Below are positions 11,056 through 34,273 of a stretch of DNA of 57,151 nucleotides, one piece after another. The position numbers and the translations under genes were made by a program. The stretch lies in assembly GCA_035443705.1 (NCBI GenBank), contig DAORSV010000001.1, positions 1 to 57,151 on the forward strand, read 5' to 3'. The stretch's first letter is position 1. Every line of letters starts with the position of its first letter. Source of the stretch: Gammaproteobacteria bacterium. GTDB taxonomy: Bacteria > Pseudomonadota > Gammaproteobacteria > UBA6186 > Azoamicaceae. The notes under the pieces are model-generated. The model ran no database searches and was not told the DNA's origin. It saw only the letters and a list, made by a program, of their open reading frames with translations.

Positions 11056-12057
11056 ATGAAAATTTTAGTAACCGGTGGACTTGGTTTTATCGGCTCTCAC
11101 ATCGTTGAATATCATTTAAACAAAAATGATGCCGTTTATGTCGTTGATAATCTCAGTACAGGCAGCCTCGATAATCTGAGTCTGTTTCAAAATAACCCCG
11201 ACTTTCAATTTGATAAGGCCGATATCCTGACCTGGCAAAACATGGAAAAAGCGGTGGCTTGGGCAGATCGCATTTACCATATGGCTGCGGTTGTCGGTAA
11301 TCTCAGAGTCATACAAGAACCTATTAATGTTATTGCGAGTAACATTGCCGGCACAGAACGGTTATTTAATACCATTACCAAAATAGGAAATACCCCGAGA
11401 GTGATACTGGCATCCACATCCGAAGTCTATGGTAAAAGCTCTAAATCAACGATGCAAGAAGAGGATGATCTTATCATCGAAAACCCTGTGCATTTACATT
11501 CAAATTACGCTATCAGTAAACTAAGTGACGAAATTATTGGGTTATCTTATGATCGCATCAATAATATACCCACCACAATTATCCGTTTTTTTAATACCAT
11601 TGGTCCCAGGCAAACAGGCACTTATGGATTTGTCGTTCCGAAATTTATCGCACAAGCTTGTAAGGGCGAACCTATCTCTATCTATGGAGATGGCAGTCAA
11701 ACCAGAAGCTTTGGCGATGTTCGAGATGTTGTCGTGGCTTTAGACTTAATTGCCGAAAATATAAGGACACGATACAATATTCTTAATGTGGGAGTAGATC
11801 ATGAAATTACAATAAAAGCCTTAGCCAATCTTGTTCGAGAACGCGCAAACAGTAAGTCGGATATTATTTATGTACCCTATAAAAAAATTTATGGAATGGA
11901 ATTTCTAGACATCATGCATCGAAGGCCGGATTTAACAAAACTTCACAAACTTATTCAATTCAAGCACAAATGGACTCTCGAAAAAACCGTCGATAATCTA
12001 ATTGGTATTTTTAATGAAAATTCATTAAAACCGCAATTGAAAAATAAAAATCTTTAA
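11056..12057 (+). CDS. NAD-dependent nucleotide-sugar epimerase/dehydratase (extended SDR)
   Basis: VTGGLGFIGSH Rossmann motif, STSEVYG, and the catalytic YxxxK as YAISK. A good AAGGAAGGA Shine-Dalgarno precedes ATG 11056. Its stop overlaps the stop of the convergent 958-aa gene (TTTAAA at 12053-12058). Confidence 0.85.
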   Translation: MKILVTGGLGFIGSHIVEYHLNKNDAVYVVDNLSTGSLDNLSLFQNNPDFQFDKADILTWQNMEKAVAWADRIYHMAAVVGNLRVIQEPINVIASNIAGTERLFNTITKIGNTPRVILASTSEVYGKSSKSTMQEEDDLIIENPVHLHSNYAISKLSDEIIGLSYDRINNIPTTIIRFFNTIGPRQTGTYGFVVPKFIAQACKGEPISIYGDGSQTRSFGDVRDVVVALDLIAENIRTRYNILNVGVDHEITIKALANLVRERANSKSDIIYVPYKKIYGMEFLDIMHRRPDLTKLHKLIQFKHKWTLEKTVDNLIGIFNENSLKPQLKNKNL

Positions 12058-32183: not shown

Positions 32184-34273
32184 AATTGTTCCCTTAACGT
32201 GCTAGATATATTGATAAGCTCCAAAAGTATGCCGCTAACAACAAATGTCTTGCTTGTTTTTATGCCGAGTTTTGAATGTATTTTTTCGTGCTTTATTGCG
32301 TAAACTCTAACTACGTATTTTTGATTTTTTGTTTTTAGTAAACGTGCCGGAAAAGAAAAAGTTTTCTCATGCATAACAACATCTTGTAAACATTGTCTTG
32401 CTTCTTCATAATTTTTGCTACTAATAGAAACAATCAAGTCAAGCGCTGTTATTTTAAACGGCAAAATTCCTTCAGACTGCAATAAGGTAGAGATGCTGGC
32501 ATTTAATTTTAAGGCTCTACCAAATAAATCATAAAGTATTATTGCCGTCGATAATCCATTAATAACATTCTCGAGAACCAACAGATGTTTGTCAAGTAAA
32601 GTTATGGATTGATGTAATCTATTGTAAAAATAAGATTCATTTTCAAAGAATTTAAAATTTTTCCATGTGCTTAATGATGTTTTATGCAATTTTTTCCATG
32701 CTTGCGCGTGATATAATAATTCGGAAATTTCTTTAGAAAACTTATGAATCATGGTCTCAAAATTTTCATTTAAGGTTGCTATTTTTTCTTCTATACCAAA
32801 TGCTAAAAACCCAAGTACATCTCCAGCAAAAACTAACGGTACTAAATATTGAATCTCCGACAGGGGTTGCTGTTTATTGAAGTACCCTTGTATAATATAA
32901 GGTTTATTTTTTTTAATGCAAGTCAGGTAGGGTTCTCTTTCATAATCACGTCGTTTTTCGTTTATATCGTTTAGGCTACAACGTAAGGCTTTTACTTCTT
33001 GTACGCGATGATCTCCGCTAAGGCGCTCAAGAATGATTAAGCGACTAAAGCTAAACATTTGATCTATCATAACAACTACTTGAGACCAATGATCTTTTAA
33101 ATTAAAAAAACTATCTGGATATGTTCTTTCTTGTAATTCCAAAGATAAATTAATGACAGCTTCTCTTATCGCTTTGCTCTCTAGTGCTAATTTACGACGG
33201 AAAAACAAGAGCAGTAAAACATATTGAATCAATAGTGTTTCAATAATAGGAATCCAAAAATAAGCGTATTCTAAAGCAGCTACGGTAAAGCCAATCAATA
33301 ACAGCGTCAACCCAGCATTGACCAATATTAAAACTTTTATTTCAAAAAAAGTACAAGCACCTAAAACACTTAAAAAAATCATGGCATACAATGCTAATTT
33401 TTCAAAATCATTTAGCTGTTCGATCTGGTTATTGTTTAATAATGTGTCTAGTGCAAAAGCATGAAACGCCAATGGTGAAATCATTTCATTTGAAGCGGTT
33501 GCTGGTGTATGTAGTCCTATTTCATTATTTTTTTTAATAAATCCTATAATAATCACTTTATTATTAACCAGTTCGGATACTAGATCATTTGATAAAATTC
33601 TTTCAATGTTAATTTTTGAAAGATTTTCTTCTCCGCCTTGAAAATTAATAAGATAGGTTTTATCTTTAAATGCGAGATTTTTACCATAAAATTTTTCAGC
33701 TGAAGCAACCTCAAGGAGCGGAAGAGATTTTTCTGTCACATTTGTGTAGAGCGATTGACTTCGATAGATGCCGTCTGTATTCTGAGGAATATGCAGTACG
33801 CCGAATGGTATTGTGGCATTTTCTGCAGCTATTGGTAATGGTTCTAAAATCAATTGGTCTAAATTTTCTGAGTTTGGAATAGTTTTACGCCCAAAAATAA
33901 TGTTGGGTTTCTGTGAGACAAATTGATAAAATTCTGCTAAAGCTTCTTTAGGGAAAAAAGTAAATATAATCCCTTTTGCTCCCAATTTATTAAGTGAACT
34001 AATAACATTAATCCAATTATCATTGGATATATTTTGAGCCTCGTAATCGACTTCTACCATTAAGACTTTATGATTGCTTTCTTCGCTTGCCTTTAAGGGA
34101 TGACGGCTAATATAATCATAAGCTAGGCCATCTGTTCCAGATAAACCACTTCCAAAACTAATGCTCCATATGGTTAAGACAGCCACGATGGGTGCTGCAT
34201 ATGTTGTAACCAATTGCTTCAATTTATCAAAAAAATTGACCAACATTGATATTGATGCTATGCCTTTTCCCAT
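32180..34273 (-). CDS. CHASE2-type membrane sensor with cytoplasmic GAF-like and PAS-like regions and no recognisable output domain
   Basis: N-terminal TM, then a periplasmic region with a CHASE2-like pattern (GLAYDYISRH, KVLMVEVDYEAQ, LNKLGAKGIIFTFF). Three clustered TMs follow (LALYAMIFLSVLGACTFF / VLILVNAGLTLLLIGFTVAAL / FWIPIIETLLIQYVLLLLFF). Next come a GAF-like segment (LVPLVFAGDVLGFLAFG) and a PAS-like C-terminus. I see no kinase, GGDEF, EAL or cyclase motifs. Confidence 0.55.
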   Translation of the reverse strand: MGKGIASISMLVNFFDKLKQLVTTYAAPIVAVLTIWSISFGSGLSGTDGLAYDYISRHPLKASEESNHKVLMVEVDYEAQNISNDNWINVISSLNKLGAKGIIFTFFPKEALAEFYQFVSQKPNIIFGRKTIPNSENLDQLILEPLPIAAENATIPFGVLHIPQNTDGIYRSQSLYTNVTEKSLPLLEVASAEKFYGKNLAFKDKTYLINFQGGEENLSKINIERILSNDLVSELVNNKVIIIGFIKKNNEIGLHTPATASNEMISPLAFHAFALDTLLNNNQIEQLNDFEKLALYAMIFLSVLGACTFFEIKVLILVNAGLTLLLIGFTVAALEYAYFWIPIIETLLIQYVLLLLFFRRKLALESKAIREAVINLSLELQERTYPDSFFNLKDHWSQVVVMIDQMFSFSRLIILERLSGDHRVQEVKALRCSLNDINEKRRDYEREPYLTCIKKNKPYIIQGYFNKQQPLSEIQYLVPLVFAGDVLGFLAFGIEEKIATLNENFETMIHKFSKEISELLYHAQAWKKLHKTSLSTWKNFKFFENESYFYNRLHQSITLLDKHLLVLENVINGLSTAIILYDLFGRALKLNASISTLLQSEGILPFKITALDLIVSISSKNYEEARQCLQDVVMHEKTFSFPARLLKTKNQKYVVRVYAIKHEKIHSKLGIKTSKTFVVSGILLELINISSTLREQF

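Follow-up and report, generated by a model that had tools for sequence, protein, structure and literature searches.

The biology of poly-γ-glutamate (PGA) is known almost exclusively from Gram-positive bacteria, supplemented by the cap genes of Fusobacterium and Francisella. We know of no described route by which a polyamide crosses the double-membrane envelope of diderm bacteria. A candidate for such a route is encoded in a 57,151-nt stretch of DNA, referred to here as the window, from a gammaproteobacterium of the Azoamicaceae (assembly GCA_035443705.1, contig DAORSV010000001.1, positions 1–57,151). Nine genes on the minus strand of the window, designated A to I, are probably best divided into two modules. 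The genes A–G (16448–34273) would encode a polyamide system of the double-membrane envelope that is derived from PgsB and PgsC, and the genes H–I (12054–16335) a separate exopolysaccharide (EPS) pair. We hold this reading to be the likely one, though by no means assured. PgsB and PgsC alone are sufficient for PGA production in B. subtilis (PMC6029982), and the absence of PgsA is therefore no argument against polymer synthesis. In the CapsuleFinder survey (Rendueles et al. 2017), PGA systems were defined by CapB and CapC, with CapA as an accessory component, and PGA capsule loci with this gene pair were found in most phyla, notably in the Planctomycetes (PMC5542703). Since such loci had already been counted by CapsuleFinder, the bare presence of CapB and CapC in diderm phyla is not new, and the suggestion made in a preliminary description of the window, which was based on the sequence alone, that the system would be new for a Gram-negative, host-associated lineage is corrected to that extent. 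A part of the PGA matches of CapsuleFinder probably belongs to the A–G family. The fusion architecture, the accessory families and the regulatory pair of A–G are not described in that survey.

The genes A, B, C, D, E, F, G, H and I encode proteins of 697, 1081, 826, 299, 1651, 678, 724, 463 and 958 aa, respectively. The length of the F product is about 670 aa if counted from an internal ATG. The junctions between the genes read TTGA at 32180–32183, ATGA at 28938–28941, ATGAATAA at 26473–26480, TAAATATG at 20629–20636 and ATGA at 18619–18622. The remaining ones are gaps of 3 nt (25590–25592), 112 nt (16336–16447) and 13 nt (14931–14943). Direct reading of the sequence reproduced all lengths and junctions listed for the nine open reading frames (ORFs) in the preliminary description, and genes called independently on the source, an ENA metagenome contig, were the same. 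Because each of the nine ORFs has homologues elsewhere, they are real genes and not chance ORFs. The TTG start codon of B is supported by the family alignment, which starts at the identical residue.

The A–G module has a membrane-anchored ligase of the Mur ligase family, with intact P-loop and DH motifs, and PgsC/CapC modules in common with the PgsBCA(E)/CapBCADE systems of Bacillus. It differs from them in several respects. CapA, CapD and CapE are absent. The PgsC module is duplicated in tandem and fused to a part of about 720 aa with two apparently dead enzyme domains. The ligase G carries an additional all-α domain of 330 aa and is normally fused to a HEAT protein of about 670 aa. The conserved genes C, D and E and a CHASE2 two-component system are added, the hosts are diderms, and the cutoffs of both TIGR models are missed. 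No PGA_cap or GGT Pfam match was obtained for any of the nine proteins. The existence of hidden counterparts of CapA, CapD and CapE was also considered and rejected, as the hhalign probability of each of the three pXO2 proteins against the families A–G was below 20%. The lack of PgsA/CapA noted earlier is thereby confirmed. A conceptual likeness exists to the Pga, Pel, Bcs and alginate systems, as A–G is predicted to link a polymerase of the inner membrane with components in the periplasm and possibly in the outer membrane. Unlike in these systems, the polymerase would be an amide ligase, the accessory proteins are non-homologous, and no receptor of cyclic di-GMP (c-di-GMP) was identified. Full-text literature searches returned no paper on the A–G cluster and no characterised function for it, in agreement with the preliminary description. 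In the NCBI and JGI annotations, the cluster proteins are labelled only as “PgsC/CapC”, “PgsB/CapB” or hypothetical. Such labels on proteins of about 1080 and 1400 aa mask a distinct system. The core enzymology of A–G is PgsBC-like, and the tandem PgsC with its pseudo-enzyme domains, the HEAT–ligase–α protein, the proteins C, D and E, and the CHASE2 pair have no described counterpart.

To assess the distribution of the G-type ligase, each GTDB species was represented by one genome and scanned for a sequence pattern, which yielded at least 584 loci. The at least 584 species-representative genomes carrying the ligase belong to the Gamma-, Beta-, Alpha- and Zetaproteobacteria, Desulfobacterota, Nitrospirota, Planctomycetota and Verrucomicrobiota. 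Cultured carriers among the matches are Methylovulum miyakonense HT12, Vreelandella and Halomonas species, Halovibrio, Aromatoleum evansii KB740 and Crenothrix; Azoarcus sp. CIB (AzCIB_0193 region) carries it as well. The link to a host-associated lineage made in the preliminary description does not hold, as the unit is common among bacteria living freely in the environment. Overall, the comparison covered more than 80 related loci, and the nine window proteins were searched against the ORFs of 80 of them. Upstream sequence of 7.5 kb or more is available in 49 loci, and homologues of E, C and D were found upstream of the ligase ORF in 45, 44 and 42 of these, respectively. The gene order A(kinase)-receiver-B-C-D-E-FG is observed in the loci L006, L008 and L091. 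Permuted loci retain the same genes together, as in L058 (G-A-RR-B-C; RR, response regulator), L075, L025 and L040. The loci L046 and L048 from Alphaproteobacteria/Dongiaceae lack E and contain a short, divergently oriented A of 483 aa, followed by B-C-D-FG.

The situation downstream of the ligase is different for H and I. Downstream sequence of 3 kb or more is available in 54 loci. None of these contains a homologue of I, and an H-like match is found in one, where it is weak and lies on the opposite strand. The sole family recurring downstream of the ligase in a search for extra conserved partners was two-component signalling. In the closest relative, L004 (73% identity), the genes C-D-E-F-G are followed by tig-clpP-clpX, and both H and I are absent. 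A pair of the H–I type occurs on its own in L090, where a homologue of H with 48% identity is followed by a gene for a TPR/barrel protein and then by unrelated genes. These observations indicate that H–I is an independent pair and that only A–G constitutes a conserved unit. The compared gene orders thus set the two modules apart, with H–I adjoining A–G in this lineage only. The nine-gene unit envisaged in the preliminary description does not withstand this comparison. Its proposal that a pgs-type ligase core is joined to envelope-spanning parts holds for the seven genes A–G and fails for the glycosyltransferase and TPR genes.

The gene H (14944–16335) encodes a membrane-bound glycosyl synthase of the GT2 family, which matches PF00535 with 87.9 bits and contains the motifs DD74, DGD127, SED261 and QIFKW298. 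The last of these is a K-for-R variant of QxxRW. The protein has one N-terminal and about four C-terminal transmembrane (TM) segments. Its partner I (12054–14930) is a secreted protein with a signal peptide and many tetratricopeptide repeats (TPRs). The C-terminus of I, residues 612–939 (12114–13097), is related to the TPR/barrel protein of L090 (BLASTP E = 5e-27). The L090 protein in turn matches the PelB barrel family PF24604 with 31 bits, which is at the cutoff, and weakly the PgaA barrel family PF21197. The barrel of I is assigned transitively through this protein, and the relationship to a PelB/PgaA-type barrel protein agrees with the TPR-plus-barrel architecture proposed for I in advance. 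The CHASE2, GT2, TPR and weak HEAT assignments were likewise all borne out by Pfam/NCBIfam matches. A membrane GT2 with processive motifs stands here next to a TPR and β-barrel protein, the arrangement of a general EPS pair. With the D, DxD, (S/T)ED and QxxKW motifs of the GT2 and the PelB/PgaA-related barrel next to TPRs, H and I resemble a minimal version of the Pga, Pel, Bcs and alginate systems. The equivalog models of PgaC, PgaA and BcsC remained far below their cutoffs on H and I, and for this reason the pair can be described as a synthase-dependent EPS pair of the general kind only. A gene of the NAD-dependent sugar-nucleotide epimerase/dehydratase family (11056–12057, plus strand) is convergent with I, and the stop codons of the two genes overlap in TTAA at 12054–12057. 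It may supply the substrate of H–I.

An alternative, along the lines of the preliminary description, is a single machine of nine genes, whose amide ligase and GT2 would jointly synthesise a glyco-polyamide, or two coupled polymers, for export through I. The nine genes lie tightly spaced on the same strand. The only larger interruption is the 112-nt gap between G and H (16336–16447), which divides the conserved A–G unit from the H–I pair. Promoter and terminator scans of the gaps gave background-level results, and no consensus promoter or terminator was prominent in the 112-nt gap. The GC content is 0.32–0.37 throughout the 12–34 kb stretch (12001–34000), which comprises both modules, versus 0.40–0.46 in the flanks, and the core does not possess a proven outer-membrane exporter of its own. 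The lower GC content of the block may reflect horizontal acquisition or relaxed composition. The gene neighbourhoods contradict the idea of a single machine: in 53 or all of the 54 informative loci, which represent many phyla, homologues of H and I are not located next to the core, and the pair is also missing from the closest relative. Furthermore, pairs of the H+I type exist alone elsewhere, and the core has its own candidate barrel in E. We therefore regard a nine-gene machine as quite unlikely.

The central enzyme of the A–G module is the product of the gene G. Its ligase part, residues 32–392 (17447–18529), matches positions 2–347 of the 380 positions of TIGR04012 (PgsB) with 197.8 bits (E = 2.3e-58). 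This is the sole NCBIfam model matching G, and no Mur family was reported. The G-family profile aligned to CapB of B. anthracis pXO2 with an hhalign probability of 99.8% and 28% identity, and the N-terminal half of G shares 26–29% identity with annotated pgsB/capB genes in tblastn. The P-loop GTRGKSG and the motif TN(T/A)(Y/F)PDHE are retained in the G family, the version in the window being TNAFPDHE. The residues G66/R68–S71 and T168/N169/D173–E175 are invariant across the family. The ligase part is preceded by a family-conserved hydrophobic helix at residues 29–47, within the segment 18529–18622 that encodes residues 1–47. Homology to authentic CapB, the P-loop, the DH motif and the N-terminal hydrophobic helix are all present in G, which bears out the earlier description of the 724-aa protein as PgsB/CapB-like. 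G is regarded as a distant PgsB/CapB homologue, for which the synthesis of γ-polyglutamate is the predicted activity.

Residues 393–724 of G (16451–17446) form a family-specific domain of unknown function. In the AlphaFold2 (AF2) model, this domain consists of helices only (pLDDT, the predicted local distance difference test, 83.3). A fold search gave no PDB match with E<0.5 for the domain, and the G-family profile gave no meaningful match to all PDB sequences. The domain is found in 525 clusters of a representative set of 1.84 billion proteins, and most of its full-length matches are located at the C-terminal end of proteins of about 1350–1450 aa. The upstream gene F (18619–20655) encodes a soluble protein with weak HEAT-like matches (HEAT_2/TAF6_C), whose homologues carry PF13646. 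No family-conserved hydrophobic or TM segment was detected in F. A single fused ORF encodes F and G in 76 of 80 loci, and F normally forms the N-terminal half of the joint polypeptide.

The gene B (28938–32183) encodes a polytopic membrane protein, which opens with two tandem PgsC/CapC modules followed by a part of about 720 aa. The first module comprises residues 24–158 (31710–32114) and the second residues 214–331 approximately (31191–31544). PF14102 matches B twice, with 86.6 and 65 bits at a gathering cutoff of 27, and the hhalign probability of B with CapC from B. anthracis pXO2 is 96–97%. The two PgsC/CapC modules that had been recognised at the beginning of the 1081-aa protein are thus well supported. 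The equivalog model TIGR04011 scored 64.2 bits on B and did not reach its cutoff of 96.45, and B also departs from the stand-alone architecture of about 150 aa. More than 1300 matches were scored in the homologue search with B. The 120 listed ones are approximately 1060–1120 aa long and share 45–50% identity with B at a query coverage of 95–100%.

The large C-terminal part of B is placed in the periplasm because the conserved residues K325, K329 and R337 precede the last TM helix (positive-inside rule), and it is probably periplasmic. It contains two domains with the carboxypeptidase/N-formylglutamate amidohydrolase (FGase) fold of the D protein. The first one, residues 395–640 (30264–31001), aligns to the D family with an hhalign probability of 98% (E = 1.7e-13), and the second one, residues 672–951 approximately (29331–30170), with 96.6–97.5%. 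The internal repeat of B is detected with 98.9%. The positions aligned to the invariant histidines of D are replaced in both domains, H124 by A and H195 by R in the first, H124 by R and H195 by S or R in the second. Judged by these replacements, both D-like domains of B are catalytically dead. A search with the B-family profile against all PDB sequences gave no meaningful match. A hypothetical protein encoded on the Chroococcidiopsis thermalis plasmid NC_019699.1 (344669–345247) matches the first of these two domains with 27% identity (E = 8e-7), which shows that the D-like fold family is not restricted to the A–G cluster.

The gene D (25593–26492) encodes a protein with a predicted signal peptide and a secreted part of about 270 aa. 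The residues H124, D128, H195, H271, E273, N150 and R154 are invariant in its family. The AF2 model of D has a pLDDT of 88.5. The top Foldseek matches are putative M14-like metallopeptidases (2qvp, 3ieh, 3b2y), the FGase-family protein Atu2144, carboxypeptidase A1, succinylglutamate desuccinylase and MpaA, with a probability of about 1.0 at modest TM-scores of 0.35–0.47. The viral fold matches are N-formylglutamate amidohydrolases, a phage carboxypeptidase and cell-wall amidases. At the sequence level, D gave no match in Pfam (E<=10, with PF05908, M14 and FGase included), in NCBIfam or among PDB sequences, and no phage match was obtained by tblastn. The model thus points to a zinc-carboxypeptidase/FGase-like amidohydrolase. 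With the M14/FGase/PghP fold group D shares the predicted fold. It has an invariant His-x3-Asp...His triad with a Glu, and its Asn/Arg pair resembles the carboxylate-binding pair of carboxypeptidase A. It differs from the members of this group by the lack of profile membership and by its two paralogous copies inside B, which are devoid of the ligands.

D had been described as having a His/acid/His layout like that of the PGA hydrolase PghP (DUF867). PF05908 matches the authentic PghP, from phage phiNIT1, with 188.8 bits, but the hhalign probability of this protein against the D family is 0.3%. It is also outside the top 50 fold matches of D, and the fold group is common to M14 and FGase proteins. 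On the basis of the fold matches and the hhalign result, D is a zinc-amidohydrolase-fold protein and not a demonstrable relative of PghP; membership in PghP/DUF867 is rejected. What stands of the earlier description is the invariant His/Asp/His arrangement on a predicted zinc-amidohydrolase fold. The characterised fold relatives of D (the FGase family, succinylglutamate desuccinylase and MpaA) act on N-acyl-glutamate or γ-glutamyl amide bonds. By analogy, these substrates fit a glutamate-based product, without proving it.

The genes C and E encode large envelope proteins. The product of C (26473–28953) is anchored by an N-terminal TM segment (residues 7–25) and contains a part of about 800 aa, which is presumed to be periplasmic. 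It represents a new family, as no match was found in Pfam, NCBIfam or among PDB sequences, either with C alone or with its family. The hhalign probability is 86% for an internal repeat of C and likewise 86% for similarity of the repeats of C and E, which points to a weak relation of the two proteins. E (20634–25589) is a secreted giant of 1651 aa with a signal peptide, a large repeat, a helical middle and a barrel-like C-terminus. Residues 178–555 and 866–1197 form the repeat (97.6% probability in hhalign). Searches with E in Pfam and PDB sequences were negative. At E<=10, Pfam returned no match for the unannotated parts. The family-averaged score of hydrophobicity alternation peaks in the last approximately 240 residues of E. 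This strand pattern is compatible with a β-barrel, as had been anticipated, and residues 1390–1625 approximately (20715–21422) are a candidate outer-membrane barrel. When the whole C and E families were scanned with Pfam, the only matches were sporadic ones to the peptidoglycan-binding domains SPOR and OmpA, present in 2 and 1, respectively, of 19 E homologues (L010, L050, L043). Four E homologues have large internal inserts, which correspond to the positions 436 and 608 approximately of the window E in L010, L050 and L043. These inserts are likely the sites of the SPOR/OmpA domains. A further variable insert is found at position 1003 approximately in many homologues.

The peptidoglycan-binding domains raise the question whether A–G could modify a component of the cell wall or envelope, for example by adding γ-glutamyl or peptide units to peptidoglycan or a periplasmic acceptor, and produce no free exopolymer. 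Enzymes of the Mur ligase family build the peptides of peptidoglycan, and the fold neighbours of D include MpaA, a γ-D-Glu-mDAP amidase, and phage cell-wall amidases. However, PgsB is the only ligase family matched by G, to the exclusion of Mur families, and the partnership with PgsC modules is a hallmark of processive PGA synthesis. The PGA of B. anthracis is itself anchored to peptidoglycan, and peptidoglycan binding is therefore compatible with polymer synthesis. Wall modification by A–G without a free polymer is thus considered unlikely.

The first gene of the module, A (32180–34273), encodes a sensor with a periplasmic CHASE2 domain (residues 37–305, 55.7 bits in Pfam), a TM block and a conserved cytoplasmic region. 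In the alignment, A ends just before the DHp/HATPase kinase module of about 200 aa that is present in six homologues of 877–917 aa. Of the two parts of a CHASE2 histidine kinase, A thus retains the CHASE2 domain and lacks the kinase module. A called receiver gene of about 126 aa directly follows the sensor gene in L006, L008 and L091, and an ORF of about 130 aa belonging to the signalling family does so in L025, L040, L058 and L075. In the window a receiver gene is missing, and the stop codon of A overlaps the start of B (32180–32183). The window lineage has lost the signalling output, kinase and receiver. In the locus L092 (10001–11353), a truncated orphan ligase fragment of 450 aa with 71% identity is located between mlaEFD and unrelated genes, with no partner genes nearby. 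The A–G unit is evidently being lost in a part of the window lineage, to judge from these gene contents.

The losses might be taken as a sign that the cluster in this organism is a decaying, non-functional remnant, the more so as F and G are split here, in contrast to 76 of 80 loci, and a relative retains only the orphan ligase fragment. On the other hand, the seven ORFs are intact, including those of 1651 and 1081 aa, and all family-invariant residues are kept. The split of F and G is also found in a genome of 5.2 Mb and in the relative with 73% identity (L004), in both cases with intact partner genes. A remnant is hence very unlikely.

The homologies, the domain architectures, the conserved gene order and the separateness of the two modules are shown by the comparisons above; the identity of the polymer, the topology and the roles of C, D, E and F are proposed. 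We propose that the A–G proteins act as a polyamide system as follows. G, an ATP-dependent amide ligase of the PgsB type, would work at the cytoplasmic face of the membrane. In most species, the proposed scaffold F is joined to it covalently. The ligase and the double PgsC domain of B would jointly polymerise an amino acid, likeliest glutamate via γ-amide bonds, and move the chain through the inner membrane. On the periplasmic side, the two dead carboxypeptidase-like domains of B may hold the chain, which would be handed to the anchored C and the giant E, for relay or for anchoring. E may place its barrel in the outer membrane and contact peptidoglycan, in some species by means of its binding inserts. 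The predicted zinc amidohydrolase D, whose active site is intact, would trim, release or transfer the chain. The system would be controlled by the CHASE2 histidine kinase and a single-domain receiver in most species; the kinase end and the receiver are gone here. H and I would operate independently as a minimal synthase-dependent EPS pair of a GT2 synthase and a TPR/β-barrel porin.

Several points weigh against the division into a polyamide system A–G and an EPS pair H–I. The score of G is below the equivalog cutoff of TIGR04012 (197.8 versus 222.7 bits), and with this sub-cutoff score and an identity of only 26–29% to real PgsB/CapB, the substrate of G could differ. In the fused F-G proteins (e.g. 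L014:7967–12118), the helix corresponding to residues 29–47 of G sits between the HEAT part and the ATP-dependent ligase, that is, between two presumably cytoplasmic domains, a topology that is not explained by a simple single-pass anchor. The proposed periplasmic relay and the candidate barrel of E are read from sequence. A sensor A devoid of its kinase, together with the orphan ligase fragment of L092, suggests that the system may be decaying in the lineage. Since no terminator was found in the 112-nt gap, H–I may be co-transcribed with A–G in this organism.

If the proposed polyamide system is correct, A–G could be the first trans-envelope, synthase-dependent pathway for polyamide secretion or anchoring in diderms, built from families without described relatives. 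We put this forward as a tentative possibility. Equally tentative is the list of its components, which would comprise pseudo-carboxypeptidase domains for chain handling, the repeat proteins C and E with a barrel of their own, and a HEAT–ligase–α-domain megasynthase. As cultured carriers exist, A–G is a conserved and genetically tractable candidate for studying how a polyamide crosses the diderm envelope. At least four protein families of the cluster are unannotated, and its pairing of an enzyme with a pseudo-enzyme is unusual. Its carriers include methanotrophs, nitrifiers, sulfur oxidisers, iron oxidisers, Competibacter and planctomycetes, in which the system, if real, would produce an unrecognised matrix or capsule polymer. 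Because the cluster occurs in key environmental guilds and in floc and sheath formers, the product could be an overlooked part of biofilm matrices, activated-sludge EPS or symbiont surfaces.

The two modules are flanked by ordinary chromosomal genes, namely ligA, a gene for an ankyrin-repeat protein, pnp, truB, infB, nusA, nuo genes, asd, accD, truA and a gene for a GGDEF-EAL protein. An origin of the cluster from a plasmid was considered and rejected: B gave one remote match, and G matched only canonical pgsB/capB genes with 26–29% identity. The GGDEF-EAL protein (800 aa, c-di-GMP turnover) is encoded at 970–3372 on the minus strand, 9 kb from the H–I pair. A 405-aa ORF at 9352–10569 (plus strand) belongs to no Pfam or NCBIfam family. 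The ankyrin-repeat protein (513 aa) is encoded at 36390–37931 on the plus strand, and its listed ORF overlaps the start of ligA by approximately 86 nt. Ankyrin repeats are eukaryote-like and typically occur in bacteria that live inside cells or in association with a host. The genes at 39144–57103 are arranged in the order pnp-truB-infB-nusA-(152-aa ORF)-tRNA-Met-nuoN...nuoG, which we take to be Legionella-like.

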